A stretch of 64,000 nt of DNA from an uncultured Lentimicrobiaceae bacterium (lineage in GTDB: Bacteria; Bacteroidota; Bacteroidia; Bacteroidales; 4484-276). The position numbers were made by a program, and so were the translations under genes. Every line of letters begins with the position of its first letter. Within the stretch, counting starts at the first letter, position 1. The notes under the pieces were generated by a model. That model did no database searches. It had not been told where the DNA came from and saw only the letters and a program-made list of their open reading frames with translations. Shown here piece after piece: positions 882 to 19,008 of the stretch. Location: positions 27,646 through 91,645 of the forward strand of contig CAZQIV010000004.1 of NCBI GenBank assembly GCA_964593705.1, read 5' to 3'.

Positions 882-1865
882 TTAATACCCTGCATCAGAA
901 AAATACCTCATAAACTGTGTGCGTTCAAAGAGCACAGGTTGCTTAATGTTTTTCCGACTGGCTTTTCCCCTGAAATTCTCAATCGAATTGTAATTATGCC
1001 GCCGCATCCAATCAGTTAAGGTTTGTGTCATTTCGCTTAACACACTTGGCCCGTGTTTGTATATTGCCGAAACAATCTGGGTAACCTGCGCACCTACCAA
1101 AAGATTTTTGATTACAGCTTCTCCATCAAAAATACCTCGCGAAGCTGCCATATCCAAACGGACTTTCTGATAAAGAATCCCTATCCATCGGATGGTCATA
1201 ACATTGAGTTCTTTGCAACTCAGGATGTCACCAGGAATAATTTTCTCTTTTTCAATATCAACATCCGGACTGTAAAATTTATTAAAAAGAACAACAGCGG
1301 AGGCTTTAGTTTGAGAAACTTTATAAATAAAATTAGCAAGCCCCGAAAAATAATAAGAGATTTTAAGTGCATAAGGAATAGTAACAACATTACCGATCTT
1401 TTCGATAATATCGAAATAAATGTTCTCTTTTTCCTGGCCGGTATGATCAATTTCTGCCGGAAGCAAAAACAGATTGATCTCAAGCGCATCAGCGCCGGCC
1501 TCTTCAATCATTTTAGCATACGAAATCCATTCATCTGCCGACACACAGTTGATACTTGCAATCACCGGGATACTTAGCGCTTCTTTGTTTATTTTGATCA
1601 GCTTGATGTATTGTGAAATGTTATGTTTTTTAGAAAAATACATGGCATAATTTTCCTGATCGCTATAGGATCCATACATATTGTTCAATCGCTGTTCATC
1701 CACATCATGAAGGATTTGCTCCTCAAAAAGTGATTTTAGCACAATAGCGCCGACACCGGCTTTTTCGTAAGCAATCGAATTTTCGATATGTTCGGAAAGG
1801 CCGGAGCTACCGACAATGATCGGGCTTTTCAATTTAAGACCCATGTATGTTGTTGAAAGATCCAT
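882..1865 (-). CDS. Dihydroorotate dehydrogenase-like / PreA-like FMN TIM-barrel protein (last gene of Mbx-like operon)
   Basis: N-terminus GLKLKSPIIVGSSGLS and an overall class-1 DHOD/DPD barrel pattern, 327 aa, no ferredoxin domain. It lies 61 nt downstream of the GltD-like gene on the same strand. Confidence 0.7.
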   Translation of the reverse strand: MDLSTTYMGLKLKSPIIVGSSGLSEHIENSIAYEKAGVGAIVLKSLFEEQILHDVDEQRLNNMYGSYSDQENYAMYFSKKHNISQYIKLIKINKEALSIPVIASINCVSADEWISYAKMIEEAGADALEINLFLLPAEIDHTGQEKENIYFDIIEKIGNVVTIPYALKISYYFSGLANFIYKVSQTKASAVVLFNKFYSPDVDIEKEKIIPGDILSCKELNVMTIRWIGILYQKVRLDMAASRGIFDGEAVIKNLLVGAQVTQIVSAIYKHGPSVLSEMTQTLTDWMRRHNYNSIENFRGKASRKNIKQPVLFERTQFMRYFSDAGY

Positions 1866-1926: not shown

Positions 1927-3729
1927 TTACTGTTTATCAGGATGCAAAAACCTGTCGATTCCTTTTGCTGCGCTGTGTCCATTGGCAATACCATGTATTA
2001 CATCAGGCCCCTGGATAATGTCGCCACCAAAAAACAGCCAGGGCAAACTTGATTGGAAAACATCATTTACCATGATTCTTCCCCGTGGTCCCATTTCGAT
2101 ATTATCTTTTATATCCTGCGAAAGATAGCTCAGATCCATGCCCTGCCCGATGGATTCAACAACCATGTCGCCTTCGAAGAATTTGGTTGTGTCGAGATTG
2201 CATTGTGGGTTGAACATTCCTTTTTCATCGAACAATGAAAGACATTGAGCCACATGCAGGCCTTTAATTTTCCCATCAGATATTTCGATGCGCTGGGGTG
2301 CCCATCCCGGATCTACAATAGCATCTTCTTCGCGCGCTTCTACAACTTCTTCGCGATCAGCAGGCATTTTCTCTTCGGTTTCCAAACAAGTGGCAATGAC
2401 CTGTACTTTACCATACTTTTGCTTTTGAAGCCTTGCCAGCGAACGGGTAATATCCATAGCCACATTACCGCCACCAATAACAATAATTTTTTTGGCCAGA
2501 TGAATTTCTTCACCGAGGGTAATCTTGCGCAACAATTCGATGGCCTGAAAAACGTGCTTATGATCTGAGCCTTCGATGCGGGTGCTGCGACCCAAGTGGA
2601 GGCCGGTTCCTGCAAATACAGCATCAAAATCTTTTTCCAGGTCTTCAAGCAAAATATCTTTTCCTATGGTGGTATTATATTTAATCTTTACTCCTAAAGA
2701 TAAAATGTATTCGATGTCTTTATCGATCTGATCGTAGGGCAACCTGTATTCAGGAATCCCAAAACGCATCATACCCCCGGCATGAGAAAGTTTTTCGTAA
2801 ATGGTACATTCGTATCCCATCAGGGCGAGGTAATGCGCTGCCGATAGTCCGGAAGACCCTGAACCGATAATGGCAACTTTCTTTCCATTTGTGGTCAGGT
2901 TTTCAGTTTCAAGAATCTGTTTGTATTTTTCTGAAGGATTCTGGTCGGCAATGTAGCGTTTGAGCCAGCGAATAGAGATGGCTTCGCCACGATGTCCGAT
3001 CGAACAAACAGTTTCGCATTTGTGAGTACAAATCCTGCCGCATATTTCGGGCAACGGGTTTGTGTCGTATAAAATGCGCAGACCCTCTTCGAGGTCATCG
3101 TTGCGGATGGCTTTGATGTATTCGGGAATTCCCATGTGAGCCGGGCAGGTTGCCGTACAAATACCACATGCAACGCACCGGTCGGCCTCCTTCAGTGCTT
3201 CTTCCTTTGAATAGCCTTTAATCATCTCAACAAACGAGTCACTTCTTTCTTCAGGATGGAGATGCTCCATTCTTGCCCGCTGAAGGCCATAAAATTCGTA
3301 ATTTCCTTCCGGCTTTTTCCAGCCCTTTTCTTCATTTTGCCAGACTTTTTCGTCAACTCCGGGTGTAAAACGATAAGCTTCCGGGTCTTCTTCAACCCAG
3401 TTATAGGCATTCGATAATTTTAGTGAGCCTGTTGTACACACATCCACACACAAAGCACACCAGCAGCAACGGCCATAATCAATACGGGGGCGCAAACCAC
3501 TGTCGCCATCTTTGGTTTCGATGCCTTCGACCGGCACCATATCAATGGCTTCATTTTCACAAATATCTTCACAGGTTCCGCAACCGATACACAGATCAAG
3601 GTCGTTTTGGTGGAAACCACGATAACGCTCTGCACCTGGTCGCTCATTGATTGGATCTTTTAAAGCCACCGGCTCGTCAAAAACTTTTTTCCATGCGGAA
3701 AAAGGAGACAAAATATCTTTAATTTTCAT
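1927..3729 (-). CDS. Fusion protein: NuoI/MbxN-type 2x[4Fe-4S] domain + GltD/NfnB-like NAD(P)H-dependent FAD oxidoreductase
   Basis: N-terminal CIGCGTCEDIC...CCWCALCVDVC. The GltD part has CVACGICTATCP / CGRICTHKCETVC, KVAIIGSGSSGLSAAHYL and IIVIGGGNVAMD. The track start at 3741 is TTG; the ATG at 3729 (MKIKDIL) is more likely. Confidence 0.8.
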   Translation of the reverse strand: MKIKDILSPFSAWKKVFDEPVALKDPINERPGAERYRGFHQNDLDLCIGCGTCEDICENEAIDMVPVEGIETKDGDSGLRPRIDYGRCCWCALCVDVCTTGSLKLSNAYNWVEEDPEAYRFTPGVDEKVWQNEEKGWKKPEGNYEFYGLQRARMEHLHPEERSDSFVEMIKGYSKEEALKEADRCVACGICTATCPAHMGIPEYIKAIRNDDLEEGLRILYDTNPLPEICGRICTHKCETVCSIGHRGEAISIRWLKRYIADQNPSEKYKQILETENLTTNGKKVAIIGSGSSGLSAAHYLALMGYECTIYEKLSHAGGMMRFGIPEYRLPYDQIDKDIEYILSLGVKIKYNTTIGKDILLEDLEKDFDAVFAGTGLHLGRSTRIEGSDHKHVFQAIELLRKITLGEEIHLAKKIIVIGGGNVAMDITRSLARLQKQKYGKVQVIATCLETEEKMPADREEVVEAREEDAIVDPGWAPQRIEISDGKIKGLHVAQCLSLFDEKGMFNPQCNLDTTKFFEGDMVVESIGQGMDLSYLSQDIKDNIEMGPRGRIMVNDVFQSSLPWLFFGGDIIQGPDVIHGIANGHSAAKGIDRFLHPDKQ

Positions 3730-3821
3730 TGTTCTGTTCAATTTTACTGTTGTCCTTCAAGCAGAAAAGCAGTTATTGTTATTCTATAATTGCAAAATAT
3801 TGTTCCAAATATTGTGGTTCA

Positions 3822-5021
3822 TCATCGTTCAATTTCGGGTGGGCAGGTGGCAAGAGAAACCATGATGGCCGACACATCAGAAATATTAGCATTTACAAGC
3901 AGCCGTTCGAGAACCGAAACAGCATGGGTATAGCTGGGGCCGCGCAAGTTGATCCTTCGTGGAAATTCACTTCCATCCGAAACCATATAAAAACCGTATT
4001 CACCACGGCTCGACTCGCATCTTACATAGGTTTCTCCTTTGGGTATTTTCCAGTGTAACACATTAGGAGTTTCCGCACGGATATCGCCTTTGTCGGGCAT
4101 TTTAGCCATGATTTGCCTAAGTAAGTCAATTGTTGTTGTGAGGTCTTTTCGCCGCACCAAAAATCTTGAAAACACATCCGAATCATTTTCGATGTTATAA
4201 TCAAAATCGAGTTGATCGTAATATAGATATGGATAATCTTTACGCACATCTCGTTTAAATCCGGCTGCCCTGGCTACGGGACCAACAATTCCGTAGTGAT
4301 CCACCCAGTCGTTTGGAATATGGCCTATGCCAATGGTGCGCTTTTTAAATACCGCATTATTAAAGATAAGCTTATCGATGTCTTTTGCAAATTCCTCAAT
4401 TTTCACAAGATTTTCTTCGAGGCGTTTTTTAAAGCCATCAGGAAGCAAACCCCTTACTCCGCCTGGCAAAATATACATGTGATAAATTCTGGCGCCTGTA
4501 AGTTCTTCCATTCGGTCGAGGATGAGTTCGCGATAATACAAGCCCCATGCCCCTCCAAGTCCTAAGCCGATAGTTCCGGCCTGCCCAGGCACCATGCGCA
4601 GCAAAACCTGCAAGCGTGCCATTTCGAGTACAATCATCCTAAGCCAGTTTGCCATTTCGGGTACTTCAATTCCGGCCAGTTCTTCAACACCACGTGCCAG
4701 GTTATATTCGTTGGTATCAGGCTCGGGAACACACATGCGGATGCATGTCGGAAAGCATTGAATATAACGGCGGCGCTCGAACAGTTTTTCGAAGCCACGA
4801 TGCAGGTAGCCAACATGGGTTTTCGATTCCATCACCTCATCGCCGCTAATGGTTAGCTCAAGCGACATGTTGCCCGTTACTCCGGGATGGTTTGGCCCTT
4901 GCCAGACTTTTATAAATTTTTGCGACTGTAGATCAAGCACGGGCTTTCCATTTTCGTCCGTTTCGGGGAATAGGCTTCTGTCGGCTTTCCAGTTTAACAT
5001 ATTTCCGGATTTATTATTCAT
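3822..5021 (-). CDS. NuoD / MbxL-like catalytic subunit (not a [NiFe]-hydrogenase: both CxxC motifs are degenerate)
   Basis: 399 aa with GYLHRGFEKL and other NuoD/HycE-family blocks. It reads IRMCVPEPD at the L1 position and ends SLATCPPEIER. It overlaps the NuoC-like gene by 8 nt. Confidence 0.8.
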   Translation of the reverse strand: MNNKSGNMLNWKADRSLFPETDENGKPVLDLQSQKFIKVWQGPNHPGVTGNMSLELTISGDEVMESKTHVGYLHRGFEKLFERRRYIQCFPTCIRMCVPEPDTNEYNLARGVEELAGIEVPEMANWLRMIVLEMARLQVLLRMVPGQAGTIGLGLGGAWGLYYRELILDRMEELTGARIYHMYILPGGVRGLLPDGFKKRLEENLVKIEEFAKDIDKLIFNNAVFKKRTIGIGHIPNDWVDHYGIVGPVARAAGFKRDVRKDYPYLYYDQLDFDYNIENDSDVFSRFLVRRKDLTTTIDLLRQIMAKMPDKGDIRAETPNVLHWKIPKGETYVRCESSRGEYGFYMVSDGSEFPRRINLRGPSYTHAVSVLERLLVNANISDVSAIMVSLATCPPEIER

Positions 5022-5541
5022 CGGGATAGAGCTTTTGTTTCATGTAAGTTGCCGGGTCGTATGTTGTACGTCCGGGCCTCGGGAAATAGGTTTCTTCTGA
5101 GTATTTTTTAGTGTCGAAATCACGACGCATCGGAGGCATGTTATCCCAGCCTTCGAGCAAAAATGGTTCGTCCACACGCGGGCTGCCCGGAAAGTCGATG
5201 CCATACATCTCTTTCATTTCGCGTTGGAAAGTTGCAGCATGACCCCAGAGCGTATGTATCGAATCCATGTTTTCGCCATCGCGGCTAATGAAGGTACGCA
5301 GACCCAGGTCGGTTTTCGTTTCAGGGTTATTGAGCATGTAAGTAATCTGAAATTTTCCATCTTCAATCCAGTCAACGGCAGTAATCAGGATAAGATTCAC
5401 AAATCCCTCAAACGATTTCAGGTATTCGATCATCGGCAACAACTTCGCTTTTTGTACAGAGCAAAAAATTTGATAATCTTTTTTTTGCTGCAAATCGAAA
5501 ATGTCGAACCGGCTAATAAGTGTTTTAATCAAGTTTTCCAT
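5014..5541 (-). CDS. NuoC / MbxK-like subunit
   Basis: The C-terminal part of the ORF matches the NuoC 30-kDa family (TLWGHAATFQREMKEMYGIDF). The track ORF up to 5799 overlaps the NuoB-like gene. The ATG at 5541 (MENLIKT) sits 10 nt after the NuoB-like stop. Confidence 0.75.
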   Translation of the reverse strand: MENLIKTLISRFDIFDLQQKKDYQIFCSVQKAKLLPMIEYLKSFEGFVNLILITAVDWIEDGKFQITYMLNNPETKTDLGLRTFISRDGENMDSIHTLWGHAATFQREMKEMYGIDFPGSPRVDEPFLLEGWDNMPPMRRDFDTKKYSEETYFPRPGRTTYDPATYMKQKLYPDE

Positions 5542-5551: not shown

Positions 5552-6232
5552 TTACCAGTTGTAATCGGGCATATTCCAGTCCTTAATAATTTTTTTCTGA
5601 TTGGCTTTGTACCAATCCAGATTGGTAATATATTCATTGGCGCCTTCGGCTCTGCCAGCTTTAATTCTTTCTTTGAGTTTATTGAATCCTGAGAGGATGG
5701 CTTCGGGACGAGGCATACACCCTGCAACATAAACATCAACAGGCATATAATGATCGAGGCGGTTGATGGTGTTGTAACTGTCCCAGTACATTCCGCCATT
5801 GATTGTGCAGCTTCCCAGGGCGATTACAAATTTGGGGTTTTGCATTTGTTCATAAGTCCTGATGGCGCGTTTGAGGGTTTTAACCGCGAGGTAGCCCGAA
5901 ATGATAATTACCGATGACTGGCGGGGTGTTGGCCGCATGGCTACACCATAACGATAGGCATCGAAGCGGGGTGAAAAAAGCGGTGGAAGCTCAATACTTC
6001 CGCAACCAGTGCCGAATGCCAATACCCACAGCGACTCGGCGCGTGCCCAGTTTAGAAACTTTTCGATGGTTTTATTACGGGGTTCTGATACTTTTGGCCG
6101 TTCGGTGCAAAAATAATCCTGCAATGGATCCACATTAATTTCTTCGCCTTCGGGGCCAATTACAACATGCTTCCGGTTTTCCGGCGCCAGGAATTTATCT
6201 TCCGTATTCTGTATGTTTTTTTCTTCTGACAT
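5552..6232 (-). CDS. NuoB / MbxJ-like small subunit ([4Fe-4S] N2-type)
   Basis: Contains SLWVLAFGTGCGSIE, LGSCTINGG and YVAGCMPRPE, the NuoB/hydrogenase small-subunit motifs. It has a ~60-aa N-terminal extension. Confidence 0.8.
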   Translation of the reverse strand: MSEEKNIQNTEDKFLAPENRKHVVIGPEGEEINVDPLQDYFCTERPKVSEPRNKTIEKFLNWARAESLWVLAFGTGCGSIELPPLFSPRFDAYRYGVAMRPTPRQSSVIIISGYLAVKTLKRAIRTYEQMQNPKFVIALGSCTINGGMYWDSYNTINRLDHYMPVDVYVAGCMPRPEAILSGFNKLKERIKAGRAEGANEYITNLDWYKANQKKIIKDWNMPDYNW

Positions 6233-6259: not shown

Positions 6260-7168
6260 TTAAAAAATCAATATCACAATTGACAATACGCCCAATACCA
6301 GCGGAATTTTGAGCATCCACGGAATGGACTGATCAACACGGAAGCGCGGAAAAACCATCCCTACAAAAACCGCCCAGAAATACACAAAAAATGATTTCAC
6401 AATCAGTTCGAGCCAGCTTGAGGCTCCTCCAAAAAAGAGATTCATGTAGAGTACCGCTTCGATAACATGAAGTATTGCCCTGTTGGTTTGTAACACGCCG
6501 AGAAAGGTTCCATGGTATTCGGTTGGTGGCCCGATAGGATTTTCTTGCGGAGCCATCACAACATTGAAGGGGGAGTGACCCATAGCTCCTAAAAATGATA
6601 ACATTGCAGCAATGGTTGCCAGTGGATTGGTAAAAATAGTCCAGTGTAATATTCCGCCCTGCTGCATGGCTACAATTTCGGAAATCGACAAAGTTTTATA
6701 CTGGATGGCCAACGAAAGTACTGCCAGTGTAAAAGGCACTTCAATGGCCGTAAATTGTGCCAGACCCCTCGAAATTCCAATTGCTGAATAAGGATGACCA
6801 CCTTCGCCGGCGCCCAGCGCCATTCCAAGCATCCCAAAAAACATAAAATACGCAATGAGGATCAGGTCGCCGGTAAATGAAAAATTATTCCATATCTCCG
6901 AGCCGTAGATTAGCGGCATAAACAAAAAGATACCTACCCCCCCCGAAAGCCTGAACACAGGTCCCAGGTAAAACATTACCCCATGACTGAGTTGCGAGCG
7001 GATGCTGTAGTTTTTAATCAGATTGATATAAGGCTGATAAACTTTTATCCCCCTTCTCATGCTTACCCGCGCAATAATTTTTCTGATAATACCCGCCATG
7101 ATCAGCCCCCAGTTGAGGATGATAAAAAGACCGAGTAAAACGAATCCGATTTTTATAAGTAGTTCCAT
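6260..7168 (-). CDS. NuoH / MbxM-like integral membrane subunit
   Basis: 302-aa polytopic membrane protein of the NuoH/HycD type, placed between the antiporter and NuoB-like genes as in mbx. Confidence 0.7.
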   Translation of the reverse strand: MELLIKIGFVLLGLFIILNWGLIMAGIIRKIIARVSMRRGIKVYQPYINLIKNYSIRSQLSHGVMFYLGPVFRLSGGVGIFLFMPLIYGSEIWNNFSFTGDLILIAYFMFFGMLGMALGAGEGGHPYSAIGISRGLAQFTAIEVPFTLAVLSLAIQYKTLSISEIVAMQQGGILHWTIFTNPLATIAAMLSFLGAMGHSPFNVVMAPQENPIGPPTEYHGTFLGVLQTNRAILHVIEAVLYMNLFFGGASSWLELIVKSFFVYFWAVFVGMVFPRFRVDQSIPWMLKIPLVLGVLSIVILIF

Positions 7169-7169: not shown

Positions 7170-10100
7170 TTAAAAAATTATCAAATACACAATAATGATG
7201 TATGCAAGAATATGGGCAAGATATGTTTGGCCGTTGCCGGAATAGATTTTCCTAAAACTATCGGCAAAGGCATGGGAAGTGCTGTTTACACCATCCCAAA
7301 AGCGTGTAACTACCGGAGTAGTCAGAAATCCTAATGCCCTGTTGTAGGGGGAAAACATATTGTGCGAAAAATGAGTGGTTTCGGGAGTAAATGGCCGTTC
7401 GCCGGAATAAACAATATTAAACTGTTTTACATTCTGAGCTTTGCGGCTCATTATCAAGAGCCAGGTGAGCAGCGTAACAAACATAACCCCGATCACCAGC
7501 ATAATTTTGTATCCACTCCAGTAACCCAGGTTGGTTGAAGCGGTAACGTTTTCCCATGTTAGCGGGTCGGTGGGGAAATACCCTGCCTGCGAAAGTAAGG
7601 CACCAATAGGTTGAAGTACCAGATCGGGGCGGGCCGAAAATATCATAATGCCAACAATAAGAATAAACTGAGGTAAAATATACCAAATCGGAACTTCCTT
7701 TACCTTCCTGAACTTATCTTTGGGCTGACCCAAAAAGATGGAATAAATCAGCTTGAAACAATATAAGAATGCAATGGTTCCAGAGAAAAATACGATGCCC
7801 CCCTGAAAATACCAGCCTTTAGAGATAACTGCATTGTAAAAAAGCCATTTACCGGCGTAACCCGACAATGGAGGAATTCCGGCAAGGGTAATAATACCTA
7901 TTAAAACGGCGATGAAACTCCAGGGCATACTTTTGATAAGGCCTCCCATTTCGTACATGTTGTGGGTCTTCACACGCATAACCACTCCGCCAATAGCGAG
8001 GAACAGCAAGGTTTTAAACATGAAGTGGTTGATCGAATAAGTTAATCCTGTAAGCCAGCCAACATTGGTCATAAAGGCAAAAGCAAAAAGGATGTATCCC
8101 AGGTTTCCCACACTCGAATAAGCCAGCAACCTTTTCGCATCTTCCTGGAAAACAGCCATCAGGTTGCCCCCCAGGGCAGTTATTGCTCCCAGCCATCCTA
8201 AGGCATAAAGCAGGGGATGCCCTCCGGCATTTTCAGCACCCATTGCCAGAAATAAAACGATAAGCCCAAAAGCGCCTCCCTTTAGCAAAATACCGGAAAC
8301 CATGGGTGAAACATCCGACTCTGCCTCGGCGTGTGCTCCGGGCAACCAGATGTGCAAACCCAGGGCAGCAGTTTTGGTAAGAAAACCTACAGCCAGCAAA
8401 GTGTAAGCCCATCCCGGAAAATGCGTTGTATTGAGCAGTGATAGCGAAATACCCGACTGTCCGGCCACCGAAAGCGCAATGCCCATAAATATCAGGTAAG
8501 CGCCTCCAAGCGAAAACAACATATAATTATAAGCATGAACAAGGGATTTTTTGCCCCTGATGATGAGCACATACGAACCTAAGGTCATCAACTCCCAGGC
8601 AAAGAAAAACTGAAGCAAATTTTTAGCTTCCACCAACCCGATCAAACCGGCATACATCATAATGGCAAAAGGGAAAAACCCGGGGCGTTTGCCTTTTACC
8701 GAATATCCGGCAAATAAGGTGAGCAGGCCGCCAATAAGGAAAATGCCTGCAAAAACCAGTCGCAGGGTATCGTCTTGTAGTGAAGGATAAAGTTGCCATG
8801 CGTAATATCCCATGCCAACAATGGCAATGGTATTTTTTATTCGGGCAGGCAAAAAATCAAGAACAAAAAGCAATAGAATAAAATAAACGGGGATCAGATT
8901 AAGGCTTAACCCACCCGGAACAGCTCCGATGGCAAAATGACTGACACCAATAATTGCCAGCGCAAACACAGCCACAGGAATAAGTTTTTCGATTCCTAAA
9001 TCAATTTTCTGGTCGGCTTCAATATCCAGCTTAATGGCAAATCCCAACCAACGGAAAAGATAAACCCCTTCGAACATCGATCCCAGGAGAATCGCAACGA
9101 TCCATCCAAATTGCCCTTGCGAAGCCAAATCCATGACCAACTGCCATTTTCCAAAAAATGAGGGAAATGGAGGAAATCCTATCAAAGCGAAAGCAAAAAG
9201 ACCGAAAGCGACTAACAGCAACGGCTTGGTTCGCAATACCGACCAGCTTCTGATGTTTTCTTTTCCAATCATACCCGATAACCAAAACAATCCTGCCTTA
9301 GCTAAAAAGTGACTGATAAACAAGCCAAAAAATACCATGCGAAGGTGGTTTCCCAAAAGATGGGAAAAACCGATAACTGCCACCATTAAACCTATCTGGC
9401 CTATTGATGAATATCCCAGCAGTCGGTTTGCATTTTGTTGGGCAATGCCCAGCACATTTGATCCTACAAAAGTTATCATCCCAATTAGGGCAACCACATT
9501 CATCCAGTCGTTTGTTCCGAAAGGCAACAATTTATAAAGCACGAAAAGTGAGGCCGTAGCCGTACCCGATGAAATCATGGCGCTTATTCCCGGATGGGCC
9601 GATTGATAAACATCAAGCCCCCAGCCATTAGCAGGAAAAGGTTTAAGCTCCAGCAGCACCGCAATAATTACAAGAAATACAGCCGTTGACAGTCCTTTGA
9701 CAGCCCCGGTATTTTTGCTAATAAAATCATCGATGTTGAGTGTGCCTGCAAAATAATAGATGAATCCAATTCCTAAAAGTAATACTGTTGAAATTACACT
9801 AACAGCAATTAAATATTTAAAACCTGCCGAAACCGAATCGATATTTTTCTTGAGAAAAATAAGGCCAATGATCGCAATGGAGGCAATTTCCAAAAATACA
9901 AACATGTTAAAAATATCGCGGGTCATAATAATAACATTCAACCCCATGATAAGTACCAGGAAAAGCACAACGGCACTTGCACCAGCTTCTTTAAAGGTTT
10001 TATACAAATATAAAAATCCAAAAAATCCAAGGATATTTGTAGCTGAGGTCAGAAATGCTTCTTCGATACCCATTTTCAGATTGATCGAAAAGGGTGGCAG

Positions 10101-10298
10101 CGCTCCTGCGGTATAAATGATAAATGGTTGCGTGGCATCGCCCATAAAATGGAGAAGCCAGCTAATAGAAACAACTGCCGGGAAAGCAAGTGTAATGAGT
10201 GCAACAAGCCGGGCAAAATCTGAACCGGGTTTTCTGAACAATCCCAGCAGGAATGCAACACTCAGCAGGACAGCAACGATATATACAGGATTTACCAT
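7170..10298 (-). CDS. Double antiporter-like subunit (two NuoL/M/N - MrpA/D modules fused; MbxH-H'-like)
   Basis: 1042 aa, about 30 predicted TM segments. The C-terminal module has the canonical LHIWLPGAHAEAESDVSPMVSGILLKGGAFG. The N-terminal module has a divergent counterpart, GWGLDVYQSAHPGISAMISSGTATASLF. Confidence 0.75.
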   Translation of the reverse strand: MVNPVYIVAVLLSVAFLLGLFRKPGSDFARLVALITLAFPAVVSISWLLHFMGDATQPFIIYTAGALPPFSINLKMGIEEAFLTSATNILGFFGFLYLYKTFKEAGASAVVLFLVLIMGLNVIIMTRDIFNMFVFLEIASIAIIGLIFLKKNIDSVSAGFKYLIAVSVISTVLLLGIGFIYYFAGTLNIDDFISKNTGAVKGLSTAVFLVIIAVLLELKPFPANGWGLDVYQSAHPGISAMISSGTATASLFVLYKLLPFGTNDWMNVVALIGMITFVGSNVLGIAQQNANRLLGYSSIGQIGLMVAVIGFSHLLGNHLRMVFFGLFISHFLAKAGLFWLSGMIGKENIRSWSVLRTKPLLLVAFGLFAFALIGFPPFPSFFGKWQLVMDLASQGQFGWIVAILLGSMFEGVYLFRWLGFAIKLDIEADQKIDLGIEKLIPVAVFALAIIGVSHFAIGAVPGGLSLNLIPVYFILLLFVLDFLPARIKNTIAIVGMGYYAWQLYPSLQDDTLRLVFAGIFLIGGLLTLFAGYSVKGKRPGFFPFAIMMYAGLIGLVEAKNLLQFFFAWELMTLGSYVLIIRGKKSLVHAYNYMLFSLGGAYLIFMGIALSVAGQSGISLSLLNTTHFPGWAYTLLAVGFLTKTAALGLHIWLPGAHAEAESDVSPMVSGILLKGGAFGLIVLFLAMGAENAGGHPLLYALGWLGAITALGGNLMAVFQEDAKRLLAYSSVGNLGYILFAFAFMTNVGWLTGLTYSINHFMFKTLLFLAIGGVVMRVKTHNMYEMGGLIKSMPWSFIAVLIGIITLAGIPPLSGYAGKWLFYNAVISKGWYFQGGIVFFSGTIAFLYCFKLIYSIFLGQPKDKFRKVKEVPIWYILPQFILIVGIMIFSARPDLVLQPIGALLSQAGYFPTDPLTWENVTASTNLGYWSGYKIMLVIGVMFVTLLTWLLIMSRKAQNVKQFNIVYSGERPFTPETTHFSHNMFSPYNRALGFLTTPVVTRFWDGVNSTSHAFADSFRKIYSGNGQTYLAHILAYIIIVYLIIF

Positions 10299-10663
10299 TT
10301 TAGCGATTTGTATTTATTGATATCATAAGTTCTATTTTCGGTGTACATGCGCAAAGCATAAGTAAGCATTAATGCGGTGATGCCCACGCCAATAACAATG
10401 GCTGTGAGTACAAGTGCCTGTGGTAATGGATCCACAATTTTTGTTGCGGCATCGGCTTTGTTAACAGCCCCATCGATAATTGGCGCTGTTTTATTTCGGA
10501 TGTACCCGATACTCACCAAAATCAAGTGAACACTGGTATCGAGAATAGAAAAGCTGAGGATAATTTTAATTATATTTTTTTGAGAGATTATTCCCCACAA
10601 GCCGGCAAGAAAAAGCAGCAAGCCTGTTGCCATACTTATGTATTCGATATTTAAATATTTCAT
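10292..10663 (-). CDS. MnhC / NuoK-like subunit (MbxG-like)
   Basis: 123 aa, 3 TM segments, with DPLPQALVLTAIVIGVGITA typical of MrpC/MnhC. It overlaps both neighbours by 4-7 nt. Confidence 0.75.
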   Translation of the reverse strand: MKYLNIEYISMATGLLLFLAGLWGIISQKNIIKIILSFSILDTSVHLILVSIGYIRNKTAPIIDGAVNKADAATKIVDPLPQALVLTAIVIGVGITALMLTYALRMYTENRTYDINKYKSLKW

Positions 10664-11358
10664 TTTTCCTCTCCTTGTGTTTGATTGAGCACAATAATAA
10701 TTTTAGAAAGTTCGGCACCTACCTTAAGGCCTATAAGGCTATAAATAATTGGGATGGCTCCCGCGCTGAGCAGCTCGCCAAAAGTTCCGAGGGGCAGAAT
10801 TTTATTATCAAGAAAGCCCGCGGCTAAAAAGATTCCAAGTACGCCAAGGATCACAAATCCGAAGCCCGAAAATGCTTCGGTAACTTTAAGGAGTGTATGG
10901 CTGATCCTGGGGCCAGATACCGACATGAGCCACAGAATTATGGCCGAAGCAAGCACAGCCCCACCTTGAAATCCCCCTCCCGGAGTAAGGTGACCATTGA
11001 TAAAAATATAAACTCCTACCAGAATGATGATGGGGAGTAACACATTGGTGGCGGTTTCGAGCAACTCGCTGGTAGCTTGTTCAGGTTTTCGGTTGGAGCT
11101 TTTTCCGGTCGAGAGCATAAAACCAATTATAGCAGCAGTAAGAAACAGGATGGTAACCTCACCCAGGGTATCAAATCCACGGTAGGTAACAACAATAGCA
11201 GTTACCAGGTTGGCAGCGCCGGTTTCGGCAGCGCCATTTTTTGCATAATATTCTGCAGTCGAATTTAGTTTATCTGCGCCGTGGTATGCCGATAGTTCCT
11301 GAAAAAGAATCCATCCCATACCTGCAATTATCAAAATCAGAATACTATTTCGTATCAT
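10660..11358 (-). CDS. MnhB-like subunit (MbxF-like)
   Basis: GAANLVTAIVVTYRGFDTLGEVTILF is the MnhB-domain signature. 232-aa membrane protein. Confidence 0.75.
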   Translation of the reverse strand: MIRNSILILIIAGMGWILFQELSAYHGADKLNSTAEYYAKNGAAETGAANLVTAIVVTYRGFDTLGEVTILFLTAAIIGFMLSTGKSSNRKPEQATSELLETATNVLLPIIILVGVYIFINGHLTPGGGFQGGAVLASAIILWLMSVSGPRISHTLLKVTEAFSGFGFVILGVLGIFLAAGFLDNKILPLGTFGELLSAGAIPIIYSLIGLKVGAELSKIIIVLNQTQGEEK

Positions 11359-11596
11359 CGGTTTGTCGGATTTTATTTAATACATAAAAGAAAATTACCA
11401 CTGTGAGTGCGCTACCAATAGATGCTTCGGTGATGGCTACATCAGGAGCAGCGAGAAAAATATATACCACCGAAGCAAACAAGCTGATAATGCCGGAGGC
11501 GATAACCGCAACCTGCAGGTTCTTGTGATGGATTGCTGTGAATGCCATGACGAGCATGATCAGCGACATTATAATTATGATTATCGAATAGAGCAT
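11345..11596 (-). CDS. DUF4040 / MbhD-MbxD-like small membrane subunit
   Basis: LAAPDVAITEASIGSAL matches the MnhB N-terminal (DUF4040) pattern. The ATG at 11596 (MLYSII) lies 7 nt after the MnhG stop, whereas the longer track ORF overlaps MnhG by 47 nt. Confidence 0.6.
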   Translation of the reverse strand: MLYSIIIIIMSLIMLVMAFTAIHHKNLQVAVIASGIISLFASVVYIFLAAPDVAITEASIGSALTVVIFFYVLNKIRQTDDTK

Positions 11597-11603
11597 ATAA
11601 TTT

Positions 11604-11948
11604 TTATTTAGCTTGTGAAACATTTTCTTCATCTTCGGCCAGCTTATCAATAGCAGTTCTTGATGAAAGTGGAACCTTTATAAAATGTGCTGCCCTGCCT
11701 AAAACATGCGATGAAACCGGATTGGAAATAAAAATAAAAATGATGAGCAAAGCAATTTTCAACAACCAGTCGGGATGAATCAACCCTATGCCAAGCAAAG
11801 TGAGCATCGAGCCCAGCGTAGAGGCTTTTGTTCCGGCTTGTATCCGGTTGTAGATGTCGGGCATACGCAACAATCCGATGCCTGCAAACAAAATAAACAT
11901 AGCCCCGATCAGGGTAACGAATGCGCCAATAATTTCCAGAATTTCCAT
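11604..11948 (-). CDS. MnhG-like subunit (MbxC-like)
   Basis: GIGLLRMPDIYNRIQAGTKASTLG is the MrpG/MnhG signature. Confidence 0.8.
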   Translation of the reverse strand: MEILEIIGAFVTLIGAMFILFAGIGLLRMPDIYNRIQAGTKASTLGSMLTLLGIGLIHPDWLLKIALLIIFIFISNPVSSHVLGRAAHFIKVPLSSRTAIDKLAEDEENVSQAK

Positions 11949-11949
11949 A

Positions 11950-12210
11950 TTACAAACTTTTTGCTAAATATTTAGCTATTACTATCACACCAATAAAACT
12001 CAGTATGCCATAAACTATCGAAACATCGATATAAATTACCCTGCCAAAAAAGTGAGCCAGCATCACTATTAAACCGATAGAACTTACAGTGAGAACATCG
12101 AGGGCTACTACGCGATCGACTACAGTGCTGCCAAGCAAAAAACGCACAATCACCAATAGAAAGGAAATAGCGATTATAACCAATGCGATGGAAAGAATAA
12201 TATTAACCAT
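11950..12210 (-). CDS. MnhF-like subunit (MbxB-like)
   Basis: LLGSTVVDRVVALDVLT is the MrpF/MnhF motif. The ATG at 12210 overlaps the MnhE stop by 8 nt; the longer track ORF runs inside MnhE. Confidence 0.75.
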   Translation of the reverse strand: MVNIILSIALVIIAISFLLVIVRFLLGSTVVDRVVALDVLTVSSIGLIVMLAHFFGRVIYIDVSIVYGILSFIGVIVIAKYLAKSL

Positions 12211-12697
12211 AAAGAACCTCCAGGTATTTTTCAAATTTTCGAATAATGGACTGTGCATACTTTTCGGTATTATCACCATCAATATGTACGCAATGTATAT
12301 AAAGGGTATTTTCTTTGATGTCGATGGTAAAAGTACCGGGGGTGAGCGTAATTGAATTGGCAAGTATCAGTCGGGCCATCTTCGATTTTAATACCGTTTC
12401 AGCTTTGATAATCCCCGGATTGATGGGCAATGCCGGATTGAGCACACGCATGGCAATGTCAACATTGGATTTCACAAGTTCCACAACAAAAACACCCAGG
12501 TAAACAAATGTGTAGTAGATCGACTTTGGATTGATATTAATATCATTAAAAATCGAACATTTCTTACAAATTGCAAAGGATAAGAGTAGCGAAACACCTG
12601 CTCCGATGAGTAGTGGTGCAATTTGAATTGTATTGTTCAGTACCATCCAAATGGCCATGAGCATTACAAATACAACAAAAATTCCCTTAAATTTCAT
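12203..12697 (-). CDS. MnhE-like subunit (MbxA-like)
   Basis: 164-aa membrane protein with the MrpE-typical ITLTPGT motif. Confidence 0.75.
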   Translation of the reverse strand: MKFKGIFVVFVMLMAIWMVLNNTIQIAPLLIGAGVSLLLSFAICKKCSIFNDININPKSIYYTFVYLGVFVVELVKSNVDIAMRVLNPALPINPGIIKAETVLKSKMARLILANSITLTPGTFTIDIKENTLYIHCVHIDGDNTEKYAQSIIRKFEKYLEVLYG

Positions 12698-12710: not shown

Positions 12711-13361
12711 TTAAATCAGTACTTTTTCTTTGTTATAAAAATTCAGGATTTCTATAAATTTCTCCCGGATTTCGATGAGCTGAACTTCCTGAAGTTTTTT
12801 TCCATAAATCCTGATAAAATCAATAAAATGGGGCTTTTCCATCCAATAGCCAATGGCTGCATCAAAATTCCGAAATACTTTTTTTGATTTCTGATAGGTA
12901 ATGAGCTGCTCAAAAGTTTTCCAATCGAGGGTTTGAGGAATTTCGAGATAAAATATGTCGGACGATAAGGCATTGCTGAAAACATTTTCACCCATAGGGT
13001 TGACCTCAAAAAACGACTTTAAATAGATATGACTGAGATAAGTGTTTATTTTTTTGTTCTGGTGAAAGTTAATTCCATGATTCACAAATAATGCTGCTAT
13101 ATCGTCCAAAGAATGGCCTTGCAAATCTTTTATCCTGATAGCCTTGCTGTATTTTCCAAGCAGCGAGATATGCGCAGGGCAGGTCTGAACACCGAATTTC
13201 TCATGGGCTTCAATACTAATTCTGCAAACAACATCCTGGTGGCAGCAAGCCAGGGTGGTAACCGGCAAATAGTACGACCTTTCTTTGCAGGTGTTGTCGG
13301 TAGGGTTATGTTCGGAGCAATAAAACCCCGGGAAAGGATCCTTTGATTCGAGCACCAACAT
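12711..13361 (-). CDS. Cys-rich hypothetical protein, first gene of the Mbx-like operon
   Basis: The ORF ends 13 nt before mnhE. Cys/His pattern: C-x10-C-x14-CC-x5-C-x15-C-x2-H. The track start at 13544 is GTG and leaves a 25-bp divergent intergenic region. The ATG at 13361 (MLVLESK) is preferred but uncertain. Confidence 0.45.
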   Translation of the reverse strand: MLVLESKDPFPGFYCSEHNPTDNTCKERSYYLPVTTLACCHQDVVCRISIEAHEKFGVQTCPAHISLLGKYSKAIRIKDLQGHSLDDIAALFVNHGINFHQNKKINTYLSHIYLKSFFEVNPMGENVFSNALSSDIFYLEIPQTLDWKTFEQLITYQKSKKVFRNFDAAIGYWMEKPHFIDFIRIYGKKLQEVQLIEIREKFIEILNFYNKEKVLI

Positions 13362-13569
13362 TTTGGAGACAGGTTCAAGGGAAGTATTTGATAATGTTTC
13401 CCTTTTTAAAATTGTACCGTATTTTGCCAATGTATGTTTCAATTGCTTAGTTTTGTAGAAATTTGTTGCAAAAGTGTAATTTGAATCTTTTGGTTTGATA
13501 AATAAAAAATGATTTGTCAACCGGAAAAAATTAAGATATCTCACTTTTTTTGATGTTTTATTTTGTAAA

Positions 13570-14268
13570 ATGCTGAATACGAATACAAAACTTAAATGTA
13601 GCCTGTGTACCTACAAGCAGCAATGCTATTTTAGTAGTTTAACCGAAACCGAATCTGATTTTTTATATCAAAACAAAACAGAAGTAGATTTTAAAGCTGG
13701 CCAAACCATCTATAAACAGGGTACTGTTTCGAAATATCTCATTTTTTTATTGAGTGGCATGGCTAAAGTTTTTATTGAAGGCGACAACAACAAAAATTAC
13801 ATTTTACAACTGGTTAAGCCTTTTCATTTTTTAGACTTCCCCGCCATTTTCGACAACGATATGCTTTTCCGTTCTTCGGTGGCGGTAATGGATTCGCGTG
13901 CCTGCCTTGTTGATATCGATGCTTTTAAATCGTTGGTGCTTTCCGATAAAAAACATTTCCCCCGCATCATCAGGCATTTCAACCAACTTCAGCAACAATA
14001 CTCCACCAGGTTGATCAATGTATTGTATAAAAATATGGAGGCACGCATTGCCGATGCGTTACTTTACCTGGTAAACGAAGTTTATTACAGCCGTGTTTTT
14101 ACCCTGACCATTTCGCGAAAAGAGCTTGCCGAATTGGCCGGCCTGTCCAAGGAGAGTACCAGCCGTATTTTAAGCCAGTTAAAAGATGAAGAAGTTTTAA
14201 AAATTAAAGGAAAAGAAATTGAGGTACTCAATAAAAAATACCTTGAGCAACTTTCAAGAATTGGTTAA
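13570..14268 (+). CDS. FNR-type (Crp/Fnr family) [4Fe-4S] oxygen-sensing transcription regulator
   Basis: cNMP-binding-like fold plus a C-terminal HTH (RKELAELAGLSKESTSRIL). Cys10, 13, 19 and 112 have exactly the spacing of E. coli FNR Cys20/23/29/122. Confidence 0.8.
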   Translation: MLNTNTKLKCSLCTYKQQCYFSSLTETESDFLYQNKTEVDFKAGQTIYKQGTVSKYLIFLLSGMAKVFIEGDNNKNYILQLVKPFHFLDFPAIFDNDMLFRSSVAVMDSRACLVDIDAFKSLVLSDKKHFPRIIRHFNQLQQQYSTRLINVLYKNMEARIADALLYLVNEVYYSRVFTLTISRKELAELAGLSKESTSRILSQLKDEEVLKIKGKEIEVLNKKYLEQLSRIG

Positions 14269-14718: not shown

Positions 14719-16965
14719 ATGAAAACCAGGAGAGACTTTATTAAAATATCGGCATTGGGAACCGCTGGAGCTACACTGGCTGGCAGCATGTTATCCTTTG
14801 GCCGGGGATCCTCGGCAGTGGATGATTTTACGAAAAAGACCGAGCCTCTAAAAAAATTACAACGCTACCCAACGTATTGTGAAGTATGTTTTTGGAAGTG
14901 TGCGGGCTGGGCTTATGCCGATGAAAACAATAAGGTTGTTAAAATTATAGGTAACCAGGAAGACCCGCACTGTAACGGAAGGCTTTGTCCACGGGGTACA
15001 GGTGGAGTCGGAATGGTTAACGACAGCGACAGACTTACGCAACCATTAATAAGGACCACTGTTAATGGCAAACAAACATTTAAGGAAGCAACATGGGAAG
15101 AAGCATTATCCCTCATAGCTTCCAAAATGAAAGATGTATCTGAAAAATATGGGCCGGAAGCTTTCGCTTTATTTAATCATGGATCTGCAGGTCATCATTT
15201 AGGACATCTTTTTAAAGCCTATGGTTCTACAAATATTACTGCACCATCCTATGCCCAATGCCGCGGGCCTCGCGAAGTTGGTTTTGCAGCAACCTTTGGT
15301 TCAGGAGTAGGCTCACCCGAACCTACTGATATTCGCGACACAAGATGCCTCGTTCTGATAGGCTCTCACCTTGGCGAAAACATGCACAATAGCCAGGTAC
15401 AGGAAATGTCGGATGCCATCGACAAAGGCGTTTCCATTATTACCGTTGACCCCAGGTTTTCGACAGTAGCCAGTAAATCAAAATTCTGGTTACCCATCAA
15501 GCCTTCAACCGATCTTGCACTTTTGTTAGCCTGGATTCATGTAATAATCAACGAAAAACTTTACGATAAAGATTATGTTGAAAAATATACTTACGGACTC
15601 GACCTGCTTAAAGCGCATGTAGAAAACATGACCCCTGAATGGGTCTATGGCATAACTACTATTAAGCCAGATGTAATCAGGAAGACTGCCCGTGAAATGG
15701 CCGATGCCTCTCCATCAGTGATTATTCATCCCGGGCGGCATGTTACCTGGTATGGCGATGATAGTCAACGTGCAAGAGCCATGGCAATATTGAATGCATT
15801 ACTTGGATCGTGGGGACGGCGTGGAGGATTTTATTTCAAGGAAAGCATGAAGGTACCACACTTTCCCCACCCTGAATATCCAAAACCAAAATGGTCGTGG
15901 CGCGATACACTCAATGGCAAATATCCATTAGCCGGTTTGGCCATATCCAATGGCCTGATAGATGCATCCATCCCTTCGCCCGACAATAAGCACCAGATTA
16001 AAGCCTGGATGGTTGCCGGCACAAACCTTCCACTCACAATGCCACAAAAAGAACAGTTGAATAAGGCATTTGATGCGCTTGAATTTGTTGTAGTTGTCGA
16101 TACAATGCCAATGGAAATAACAGGTTATGCTGATGTTATTATTCCTGAATGTACTTATCTCGAAAGATATGACGACCTGAGAACTTCGCCAAACCGTGAG
16201 CCATTCATCGCCCTGCGCATGCCGGCCACTAAGCCCTACGCCGATACCAAACCGGCATGGTGGATGGCCAAACAACTGGGTGAAAAACTTGGCCTTGGAG
16301 AATATTTTGCTTACGATAACTATACTGAAGTCTTAGACTGGCAGCTTCAGCAGGTAGGCTCATCACTTGAGGAAATGCAAAAAATTGGAATTAAAAAATA
16401 TAAGCGCACCTCCGGGCCACTTTACCTCGGCAAAGATGAAGATTACACCTTTAATACAAATACAGGTAAAATTGAACTTTACTCCACCGAATTCCAGGCA
16501 AACGGGTTTGATCCCATGCCTGTATTTACGCAGCATCCTGAACCACCATCGGGGTATTACAGGTTAATTTATGGCCGTGCTCCCATGCATACATTCAGCC
16601 GAACGGCAAACAACCCGAATCTTCACGACCTGAAAAAAGAAAATTCTATTTGGATTAATCCGAAAGTAGCCAGTTTGTGGGGTTTGAAAAAAGATCAATA
16701 CATCTGGATTAAAAATCAAGATGGAGTTGTATCGAAATTTCCTATTAAAGTTAGGATTACCGAAAGAATAAGATGGGACTCTATTTATATGGTACACGGA
16801 TTTGGGCATAGTGATAGAAAACTTAGCCGGGCCTATGGCCGGGGCGCCAGCGATTCGGATATGATTACAAATGTAATGGTTGATCCGATAATGGGAGGAA
16901 CCGGGATGCGTGGAAATTTTGTAACATTTTTAACTAAAGACCCAAAAGAGGAGGTTAACTCATGA
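14719..16965 (+). CDS. Molybdopterin oxidoreductase catalytic subunit, PsrA/PhsA-like (polysulfide/thiosulfate reductase family), Tat-exported
   Basis: Twin-arginine leader MKTRRDFIKISALGTAGATLAGS. N-terminal [4Fe-4S] motif CEVCFWKC...C. 748 aa. Followed by 4Fe-4S and NrfD-type subunits. Confidence 0.8.
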   Translation: MKTRRDFIKISALGTAGATLAGSMLSFGRGSSAVDDFTKKTEPLKKLQRYPTYCEVCFWKCAGWAYADENNKVVKIIGNQEDPHCNGRLCPRGTGGVGMVNDSDRLTQPLIRTTVNGKQTFKEATWEEALSLIASKMKDVSEKYGPEAFALFNHGSAGHHLGHLFKAYGSTNITAPSYAQCRGPREVGFAATFGSGVGSPEPTDIRDTRCLVLIGSHLGENMHNSQVQEMSDAIDKGVSIITVDPRFSTVASKSKFWLPIKPSTDLALLLAWIHVIINEKLYDKDYVEKYTYGLDLLKAHVENMTPEWVYGITTIKPDVIRKTAREMADASPSVIIHPGRHVTWYGDDSQRARAMAILNALLGSWGRRGGFYFKESMKVPHFPHPEYPKPKWSWRDTLNGKYPLAGLAISNGLIDASIPSPDNKHQIKAWMVAGTNLPLTMPQKEQLNKAFDALEFVVVVDTMPMEITGYADVIIPECTYLERYDDLRTSPNREPFIALRMPATKPYADTKPAWWMAKQLGEKLGLGEYFAYDNYTEVLDWQLQQVGSSLEEMQKIGIKKYKRTSGPLYLGKDEDYTFNTNTGKIELYSTEFQANGFDPMPVFTQHPEPPSGYYRLIYGRAPMHTFSRTANNPNLHDLKKENSIWINPKVASLWGLKKDQYIWIKNQDGVVSKFPIKVRITERIRWDSIYMVHGFGHSDRKLSRAYGRGASDSDMITNVMVDPIMGGTGMRGNFVTFLTKDPKEEVNS

Positions 16966-17495: not shown

Positions 17496-17507
17496 TAAAG
17501 AAACAAA

Positions 17508-18449: not shown

Positions 18450-18468
18450 ATAAATAAAATCTCATATC

Positions 18469-18987: not shown

Positions 18988-19008
18988 TCACACACAAATT
19001 TAAGTAAC

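Follow-up and report, generated by a model that had tools for sequence, protein, structure and literature searches.

A bacterial MBS/Mbx-type operon with MbsN fused to an NfnB/SudA-type flavoprotein, a candidate NAD(P)H-fed ion-translocating oxidoreductase

A window of 64,000 nucleotides, the whole stretch of DNA analysed here (contig CAZQIV010000004.1 of assembly GCA_964593705.1, positions 27,646 to 91,645 of the forward strand), from an uncultured Lentimicrobiaceae bacterium, carries on its minus strand a single operon (12697 to 882) for a complex-I-like membrane complex of the MBS/Mbx type, in which the ferredoxin-like subunit MbsN runs directly into an NAD(P)H-type flavoprotein. The locus raises the question of where electrons enter such a complex and what accepts them. 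On balance, and with confidence slightly above even, its sequences point to an NAD(P)H-fed bacterial MBS/Mbx-type ion-translocating oxidoreductase, with MbsN extended end-to-end by an NfnB/SudA-type flavoprotein. The NAD(P)H-linked Mbx variant proposed in an earlier, sequence-only reading of this DNA appears natural and reasonable. The arrangement belongs to a known, curated and widespread family and is not new, and the result for the window is mainly a correct annotation, not a discovery.

The fusion gene comprises two parts:

3280–3729, minus strand: MbsN/NuoI-type 2x[4Fe-4S] domain, residues ~1–150 (6u8y_N, E = 8.5e-24)
1927–3279, minus strand: NfnB/SudA-type module, residues ~151–600 (Fer4_20, flavin adenine dinucleotide (FAD) fold, NAD(P)H fold)

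Its open reading frame (ORF; 1927–3741, minus strand) is open from a TTG codon, and the ATG at 3729 gives a protein of 600 amino acids, the length also of a 100%-identical database protein (P0001). Residue numbers refer to this 600-residue protein, and cysteine invariance was judged over 39 homologues. The NuoI-type clusters are represented by C47/C50/C53/C57 and C88(C89)/C91/C94/C98, all eight invariant, and the Fer4_20 clusters by the equally invariant C185/C188/C191/C195 and C230/C234/C238/C242, so that all 16 cysteines of the four predicted [4Fe-4S] clusters are conserved without exception. The FAD fold lies at approximately residues 284–301 and the NAD(P)H fold, IIVIGGGNVAMD, at 415–426; Pfam matches are Fer4_20 at 168–270 (E = 2.7e-30), Pyr_redox_2 at 287–583 and dicluster Fer4 at 51–105. 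Every motif that the sequence-only reading had quoted is present at the position it gave.

The N-terminal domain is closest to MbsN. For residues 1–166 the best solved relative is 6u8y_N, with residues 5–146 aligned to 19–160 of the chain, an alignment that extends beyond the clusters on both sides, into the N-terminal segment and the C-terminal tail. NuoI chains of complex I give E-values of ~1e-9 to 1e-8. The NCBIfam NuoI and FpoI models match residues 6–150 (E = 3e-27 to 1e-21), with NuoI-model scores of 54–95 bits, all under the cut-offs of 113–260 and hence outside NuoI membership; in the cysteine motifs of the domain, E and T stand where CxxCxxCxxxCP has its final proline. Multi-repeat polyferredoxins reach 3e-12 to 3e-10 by summed repeats, single repeats being far weaker. 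A generic ferredoxin as the identity of the N-terminal ~150 residues, an alternative that the earlier reading had itself raised, was ruled out, MbsN being the closest relative with the flanking segments included.

The C-terminal ~450 residues match the NfnI large subunit (5jca_L, E = 3.5e-72) and Thermotoga maritima NfnB (4ylf_B, E = 7.3e-71), the latter from NfnB residue 6 over the whole NfnB length, in contrast to 7.5e-47 for GltD proper and 1.4e-31 for dihydropyrimidine dehydrogenase (DPD)/PreT. The GltD models TIGR01318 and TIGR01317 give 257 and 211 bits, short of their respective cut-offs of 483 and 448, and the locus contains no GltB partner. In these comparisons the flavoprotein part is of the NfnB/SudA type, nearer to NfnB than to GltD or DPD, with the Fer4_20 2x[4Fe-4S], FAD and NAD(P)H folds of that family. 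The label 'GltD/NfnB/SudA-like' given earlier therefore stands in its NfnB/SudA part, and, with E-values of ~1e-72 for NfnB against ~1e-46 for GltD, 'GltD-like' is better worded 'NfnB/SudA-like'. The module looks functional, with both the FAD and the NAD(P)H fold complete and every cluster cysteine invariant. No PyrK-like NfnA/SudB partner is present in the operon or among the scanned window ORFs of at least 180 residues. The NfnB motif LERF aligns with LKRY of the fusion, a Glu/Lys difference at a position that may correspond to the non-cysteine ligand of the NfnB proximal cluster and is given no weight here.

Because the MbsN-like part reaches residue ~146 and the NfnB alignment begins at NfnB residue 6, the two proteins are joined end-to-end, MbsN first. 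The linker contains invariant residues, including W111, P123, G124, W130, G136, W137 and P140, and in an AlphaFold model of the fusion, built on a 39-sequence alignment, the flavoprotein part is confident. The same architecture is described by the NCBIfam model NF010590 (PRK13984, 'putative oxidoreductase'), to which residues 2–602 align at model positions 3–609 of 611 (E = 6.8e-267); at 886.6 bits against a cut-off of 946 the window protein falls a little short of the equivalog threshold. A gltD-type flavoprotein at the NuoI position has been described in mbx-like operons of Thermotoga and proteobacteria, where it was taken as the NAD(P) site of operons that often end with rubrerythrin (PMC4758237, Degli Esposti 2015), and the homologous Mesotoga cluster was named Mbx, an NADP:ferredoxin oxidoreductase (10.1101/322537).

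A species-level genome scan found the full-length fusion in 80 of 80 loci, at 65–86% identity and in at least six phyla. These loci span Bacteroidales, Draconibacterium, Marinilabiliales, Lentimicrobiaceae, Flavobacteriales/Ichthyobacteriaceae and 'Zophobacter', as well as Chlorobiota, Spirochaetia/Sphaerochaetaceae, Delongbacteria, Cloacimonadota and Fermentibacteria; the nearest named genome locus (L001, 86% identity) is that of a Bacteroidales metagenome-assembled genome (MAG). The fusion sits 3' of the NuoD-like gene in every locus, and the Mrp–Mbx order is intact as far as the contigs reach. The full architecture is found in ~14 clusters of a protein library grouped at 50% identity, with named members from Thermosipho melanesiensis (616 residues, 52% identity), WOR-3, Hydrothermae and Spirochaetaceae; the operon context is the same in Thermosipho and WOR-3.

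This distribution bears directly on whether an assembly error or frameshift could have joined two separate genes, as two contigs might suggest. On one (L168, 59–1808) the halves are in different frames, which looks like a frameshift. On the other (L169, 618–2497) they are separate genes for a 176-residue MbsN-like and a 450-residue NfnB-like protein, overlapping by ATGA, with a GGAGG site before the second start codon and directly 3' of an MbsL-like gene. Since the split genes of L169 are translationally coupled in the same context, the halves are partners and not the product of mis-assembly. The uninterrupted ORF of ~600 residues is found again in 80 independent assemblies and over 120 protein clusters, the linker is rich in invariant residues, and a curated NCBIfam model crosses the junction. 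The conservation data refute an artefact, to which we assign virtually no probability: the two modules are evolutionary partners, either fused or adjacent.

The remaining subunits of the core complex are encoded upstream of the fusion:

12203–12697, minus strand: MrpE/MbxA-like membrane subunit, first gene of the operon (Pfam MNHE, E = 1.2e-36)
11950–12237, minus strand: MrpF/MbxB-like subunit (Pfam MrpF_PhaF, E = 4.8e-16; start codon uncertain, ORF open to 12363)
11604–11948, minus strand: MrpG/MbxC-like subunit (Pfam PhaG_MnhG_YufB, E = 2.7e-25)
11345–11650, minus strand: MbhD/MbxD-like subunit (Pfam MbhD, E = 4.6e-19)
10660–11358, minus strand: MbhE/MnhB-like subunit (Pfam MnhB, E = 9.7e-23; MbhE, E = 7.1e-10)
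10292–10663, minus strand: NuoK/MrpC-like subunit (Pfam Oxidored_q2, E = 8.8e-24)
7170–10298, minus strand: fused MbxH–MbxH' antiporter-like subunit, 1,042 residues (two Pfam Proton_antipo_M modules)
6260–7168, minus strand: MbxM (NuoH-like) subunit (Pfam NADHdh, E = 2.5e-41)
5552–6232, minus strand: MbxJ (NuoB-like) subunit with the proximal [4Fe-4S] cluster (best solved relative MbsJ, 6u8y_J, E = 2.2e-62)
5014–5541, minus strand: MbxK (NuoC-like) subunit (Pfam Complex1_30kDa, E = 1.4e-23; start taken as the ATG after the NuoB-like gene)
3822–5021, minus strand: MbxL (NuoD-like, MbsL-type) subunit (MbsL, 6u8y_L, E = 6.2e-88 over residues 16–399)

From ORF calls and Pfam, the complete Mrp–Mbx core occupies 12697–1927. 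Its gene set and order are those of the Thermococcales mbxABCDFGHH'MJKLN operon, with H and H' in one ORF, and the order is kept in the 80 loci, where the MrpE/MbxA-like subunit remains at the operon start. The N-terminal domain of the fusion thus stands where mbxN would, in agreement with the placement made from the sequence alone. NCBIfam matches cover residues 4–450 and 472–1039 of the fused MbxH–MbxH' subunit, and continuous tblastn matches show a single ORF in almost all of those among the 80 loci whose contigs extend this far; MbxH and MbxH' are separate genes in Thermosipho (L085), WOR-3 (L086) and L087, and fused in nearly all Bacteroidota-type loci. The Prolixibacter denitrificans ortholog of the NuoC-like subunit is 175 residues long.

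On sequence grounds, all three catalytic-core subunits are of the MBS type, not of the complex I or hydrogenase type. The NuoD-like subunit is far closer to MbsL (6.2e-88) than to Nqo4 (4.9e-57) or MbhL (1.6e-33), and like MbsL it has RxCVPEPD and a C-terminal CPPxIxR (RMCVPEPD and TCPPEIER in the window). It accordingly retains the two [NiFe] cysteines kept in MBS (MbsL C85 and C385) and has lost the other two. The equivalents of Cys85 and Cys385 (window residues 97 and 393) are Ala and Tyr, respectively, in approximately one quarter of the loci, which is consistent with a non-catalytic role (PMC7684303). By our own reading of the alignment, Thr and Val occupy the quinone positions His38 and Tyr87 of Nqo4.

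In MBS the catalyst is the proximal [4Fe-4S] cluster, held by three cysteine ligands only (MbsJ C28, C93 and C123) within a shortened loop motif (PMC7684303). The NuoB-like subunit of the window is nearer to MbsJ (2.2e-62) than to complex I (~1e-39) and appears to follow this pattern: its motif FGTGCGSIE has one cysteine followed by glycine and no fourth cysteine nearby, whereas complex I has tandem cysteines and MBH a CxxC; the conserved GSCTING and AGCMPRP would provide the two remaining ligands. MbsJ C28 is retained and the non-ligand C25 is replaced by Gly, a motif even more reduced than that of MbsJ itself, and the three-cysteine pattern holds in almost every related locus where the gene is included. 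Polysulfide is favoured over quinone because of this three-cysteine motif and the missing quinone His and Tyr, and the acceptor is probably sulfane sulfur or polysulfide. The earlier statement that the acceptor is unknown was therefore too cautious, as the choice is not entirely open.

The same residues bear on whether the complex could be an NAD(P)H:menaquinone oxidoreductase, an alternative complex I with an NfnB-type module in the place of NuoEFG. Bacteroidota use menaquinone. The assembly of an NAD(P)H flavoprotein, an Fe–S chain, NuoB/D/H and antiporter subunits mimics complex I, and the NCBIfam NuoD model NF004739 is marginally passed (362.5 against a cut-off of 360). However, the Thr and Val at the His38 and Tyr87 positions, the single cysteine in place of the tandem pair and the much closer relationship of all three subunits to MBS make a quinone acceptor unlikely, and the same complex occurs in Thermotogae, T. 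maritima having no reported quinones or cytochromes (PMC9431562).

In the mechanism that we propose, NAD(P)H would reduce the FAD, from which electrons would pass to the two [4Fe-4S] clusters of the NfnB-type domain, then to the two clusters of the MbsN domain and on to the three-cysteine proximal cluster of the NuoB-like subunit. Sulfane sulfur (polysulfide) would be reduced at this proximal cluster, as in Pyrococcus furiosus MBS, and its reduction would be coupled to export of H+ or Na+ via the NuoH-like, fused H/H' and Mrp subunits. The covalent wire would do the work of the diffusible ferredoxin that otherwise links an Nfn-type NAD(P)H enzyme to MBS. As to polysulfide reductase activity of the window complex, the sole pointer is by analogy, from T. 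maritima, where elemental sulfur (S0) raises expression of mbxA, in the homologous mbx operon, 4.4-fold (PMC9431562).

Several points weigh against an NAD(P)H-fed polysulfide reductase. The step from NAD(P)H, at approximately −320 mV, to polysulfide, at approximately −260 mV, leaves only a small amount of free energy to drive ion pumping. What the genomes show directly are the domain identities, the MBS signatures, the structure of the operon and the conservation; the direction of electron flow, the substrate and the ion coupling we infer, for every fused member. The nearest solved relatives of the flavoprotein are bifurcating enzymes, which makes a linear wire an assumption, and in the AlphaFold model residues ~1–150 mostly have predicted local distance difference test (pLDDT) values below 50, so that the model is silent on cluster spacing and inter-domain geometry. 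The genomic neighbourhood lends a sulfur role weak support: a Psr/Phs-type cluster (14719–21239, plus strand) lies 2 kb away, divergent from the Mbx operon, and this adjacency is not conserved, as a tblastn search of the 46 related Psr loci that have over 3.5 kb of upstream DNA, one of them with a 97%-identical PsrA, found no Mrp/Mbx genes. Finally, the Thermotogae complex has been modelled as ferredoxin-dependent (PMC9431562) and as a ferredoxin:NAD(P)+ oxidoreductase, the latter put forward for the Thermotoga-type complex (PMC4758237) and for Mesotoga Mbx (10.1101/322537).

In the last of these proposals, the original Mbx model, reduced ferredoxin would feed the Fe–S chain and the flavoprotein would reduce NAD(P)+, with Rnf-like ion translocation. 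NfnB-type modules are reversible between NADPH and low-potential clusters. In this model, however, electrons would skip the NuoB/NuoD/NuoH junction, the coupling point of complex-I-type enzymes, a cluster without a substrate would leave the conserved three-cysteine catalytic motif unaccounted for, and the clusters at which ferredoxin would dock (MbsN distal and NfnB distal) are expected to lie face to face in the fusion. The archaeal prototype, moreover, has since been shown to be a polysulfide reductase and not a ferredoxin:NADP+ oxidoreductase (PMC7684303). We regard this model as improbable.

The last gene of the operon and the terminator are located as follows:

882–1865, minus strand: DHOD-like flavin mononucleotide (FMN) TIM-barrel protein, last gene of the operon, 327 residues (NCBIfam NF005741)
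813–847, no strand: hairpin terminator (15-bp stem, A and T runs on its flanks)

The hairpin is common to the Mbx operon and a convergent aconitase-like gene, and no terminator-like site was found in the 61-nt spacer between the fusion gene and the DHOD-like gene. The DHOD-like protein matches Pfam DHO_dh (E = 8.8e-14) and passes NF005741 (PRK07565, 'dihydroorotate dehydrogenase-like protein') with 391.3 bits against a cut-off of 303, residues 1–324 aligning to 2–328 of 335. Its similarity to sequences in the PDB is only E = 7e-8. Its AlphaFold model (pLDDT 81) is nearest in fold to class 1A DHOD and DPD domain IV, with template modelling (TM) scores of 0.62–0.64 at 15–21% identity. The PyrD models (71–89 bits, cut-offs 269–330) and the PreA model (71 bits, cut-off 335) place it outside canonical DHODs and outside PreA/DPD, respectively, only the fold being similar in the latter case. 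The NLSCPN loop of Lactococcus lactis DHODA aligns to NLFL--LP, with Cys130 replaced by Leu and Asn132 by a gap, and, in contrast to PreA and DPD, the protein has no Fe–S motif or domain. Of the earlier description as 'DHOD/PreA-like', the DHOD-type FMN barrel is borne out; the Fe–S domain of PreA and the catalytic Cys loop are missing. Conserved within the family are K44-S45-x-F-E-E-Q, S104, C107, E129, N131, P136, N195 and the C-terminal tail, and the best 120 homologues listed are all from Bacteroidota, at identities of at least 52%.

The gene follows the fusion in 50 of the 74 loci with enough downstream DNA and is absent after it in Spirochaetia, Cloacimonadota, Fermentibacteria, Thermosipho and WOR-3 loci. 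The fusions of L023 and L024 are 96.8% identical and only L024 has the DHOD-like gene; in an Ichthyobacteriaceae MAG (GCA_023145615.1) the Mbx operon lacks the gene, which adjoins a serine dehydratase gene on another contig. The 3' end of the operon is thus modular, consisting of a DHOD-like gene alone, DHOD-like and CBS-pair-like genes, a CBS-pair-like gene alone, a rubrerythrin-like gene or nothing. The DHOD-like protein is an optional, lineage-restricted accessory and not a core subunit, and since it can be missing between 96.8%-identical fusions, the core enzyme must work without it. Conservation of both genes, as the earlier reading would have expected, was found in full for the fusion and only in part for its DHOD-like neighbour. 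Among the papers searched, none joins an Mbx-like complex to a DHOD-like protein.

The CBS-pair-like protein (150–160 residues, assigned by sequence motifs alone), absent from the window, is a recurrent last gene of the operon; its gene lies directly 3' of the fusion in L016, L023, L025, L028, L034, L062, L072 and others, and 3' of the DHOD-like gene in L019, L020, L026 and others. A rubrerythrin/ferritin-like diiron protein is encoded 3' of the fusion in Thermosipho (L085, 11853–12356), matching the rubrerythrin-type operon end described previously (PMC4758237), and in Sphaerochaetaceae (L076/L080, ~11816–12270). In L087 (10001–12295; P0121, 764 residues) a rubrerythrin domain is fused onto the C-terminus of the MbsN–NfnB protein itself, a Rosetta-stone case that ties the NAD(P)H module to a diiron site of the peroxide/oxygen type.

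These accessories are central to a reading by flavin bifurcation or confurcation, in which the NfnB-type FAD would split electrons between the low-potential chain of the membrane arm and a second, high-potential acceptor, perhaps the DHOD-like protein's FMN or, in other lineages, a rubrerythrin-like partner. The nearest solved relatives of the flavoprotein are the bifurcating NfnB, NfnI-L and StnC modules, a second flavoprotein gene is co-transcribed in the window, and L087 has the rubrerythrin domain on the same protein. Yet the operon lacks an NfnA/PyrK-like [2Fe-2S]/FAD partner, the accessory varies by lineage (DHOD-like, CBS pair, rubrerythrin-like or nothing) and can be missing between near-identical fusions, and the DHOD-like protein has no Fe–S cluster to bridge to the FAD. 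Bifurcation, also suggested in the sequence-only reading, remains speculation, given that the DHOD-like gene is optional and the core enzyme must work without it, and we consider it doubtful. The same optional gene, without an Fe–S domain or a catalytic Cys loop, leaves the electron wire like that of DPD or glutamate synthase, which that reading also drew, unsupported. It seems similarly doubtful that the Bacteroidota DHOD-like protein is a peripheral subunit docked on the MbsN–NfnB fusion as a second redox site, giving two coupled acceptor sites; such a site could be a high-potential acceptor, with the FAD bifurcating, or a new catalytic output on an organic or sulfur substrate. The features cited for docking are the conserved tail E314..TQF..R320 and the invariant KSxFEEQ/S104/C107 pocket.

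Two further genes border the Psr/Phs-type cluster that lies beside the operon:

13570–14268: Crp/Fnr-type regulator
21721–22560: TatC

The cluster, which has the look of a sulfur island, encodes a polysulfide/thiosulfate reductase of the Psr type, made up of a PsrA-like molybdopterin oxidoreductase with a Tat signal (748 residues), PsrB (4Fe-4S, 177 residues) and PsrC/NrfD, followed by a pair of YeeE/YedE-like half-transporters and a pair of proteins with rhodanese domains. Most of 80 metagenome contigs, where long enough, keep the PsrABC-YeeE-YeeE-Rhd-Rhd module, and in none of them does it adjoin Mbx. Both rhodanese proteins (19612–20226 and 20601–21239, plus strand) are membrane-anchored and end in the identical tail KKKKGAVEGGC, whose last residue, a cysteine preceded by a Lys-rich run, could serve as a sulfur-carrying or a lipid/anchor motif. 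Between the Mbx operon and the regulator, a 277-residue ORF (12711–13544, minus strand) is without a match in Pfam, and the related Psr loci gave a single weak homologue of it (29% identity).

Elsewhere in the window, a second GltD-family module forms part of a 1,082-residue protein with Fer4_20 and Pyr_redox_2, read as YgfK-like without a YgfK family model, in a region covering 33086–42253 (minus strand), 42494–43087 (plus strand) and 50139–51335 (minus strand). Beside it are encoded a xanthine-dehydrogenase-family molybdoenzyme with [2Fe-2S], two pyridoxal phosphate (PLP) enzymes, MobA and an M20 peptidase, and the region resembles the E. coli ygeW–ygfK purine/selenium-hydroxylase cluster. 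At 57519–59392 (minus strand), an AAA_21/AAA_15 ATPase (415 residues) precedes a DUF4276 protein (207 residues), a pair that resembles small defence/toxin-type modules.

In evolutionary terms MBS/Mbx is placed, as an intermediate, between [NiFe] hydrogenases and complex I, and the bacterial form would represent a second, independent attachment of an NAD(P)H module to a complex-I-like core, NfnB-type instead of NuoEFG. It is widespread among anaerobic Bacteroidota, Spirochaetia, Thermotogae and candidate phyla of sulfidic sediments. If the complex is an NAD(P)H:polysulfide ion pump, the ferredoxin-dependent and ferredoxin:NAD(P)+ oxidoreductase models would change, and its carriers would gain energy-conserving sulfur reduction straight from NAD(P)H. 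As the locus is present in cultured Prolixibacter denitrificans (GCA_003014495.1), its function is open to experiment.

Among known systems, the closest is P. furiosus MBS (formerly MBX; PDB 6U8Y), which shares with the window complex the order Mrp module, H/H', M, J, K, L, N, provides in MbsL, MbsJ and MbsN its best solved matches, and has the three-cysteine motif together with the vestigial RxCVPEPD/CPPxIxR. MbsN of P. furiosus, however, is free-standing (208 residues) and ferredoxin-fed, whereas the window version runs into a 450-residue NfnB-type flavoprotein and so departs from the free MbsN of MBS/MBX; the window complex also differs in its fused H/H', in the Gly at MbsJ C25 and in the added DHOD-like gene. 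The mbx-like operons of Thermotogae (T. maritima MBX, Mesotoga Theba_1796-1808, Thermosipho melanesiensis ABR31076.1) have the same fused subunit in the same operon context, but end in a rubrerythrin/ferritin-like gene instead of a DHOD-like one and keep H and H' separate.

NfnB/NfnI-L/SudA (PDB 4YLF and 5JCA) have the Fer4_20, FAD and NADPH folds over the full NfnB length (E ~1e-71), whereas the window module has no NfnA (PyrK-like) partner gene and is placed on a membrane complex; its first cluster motif is CxxCxxCxxxCP, compared with CxxCx4CxxxCP in NfnB. DPD/PreT–PreA and GltD–GltB likewise pair the gene of a GltD-family NAD(P)H flavoprotein with that of an FMN TIM-barrel; unlike PreA, the window DHOD-like protein lacks the C-terminal 2x[4Fe-4S] domain and the catalytic Cys loop. 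DsrL also combines an NfnB-type module and a dicluster ferredoxin domain in one chain, wiring NAD(P)H to a sulfur-metabolising partner, DsrAB. DsrL has its ferredoxin domain, a generic one, at the C-terminus and works with a soluble partner, whereas in the window protein the domain is N-terminal, of the MbsN/NuoI type, and would dock on a membrane complex.

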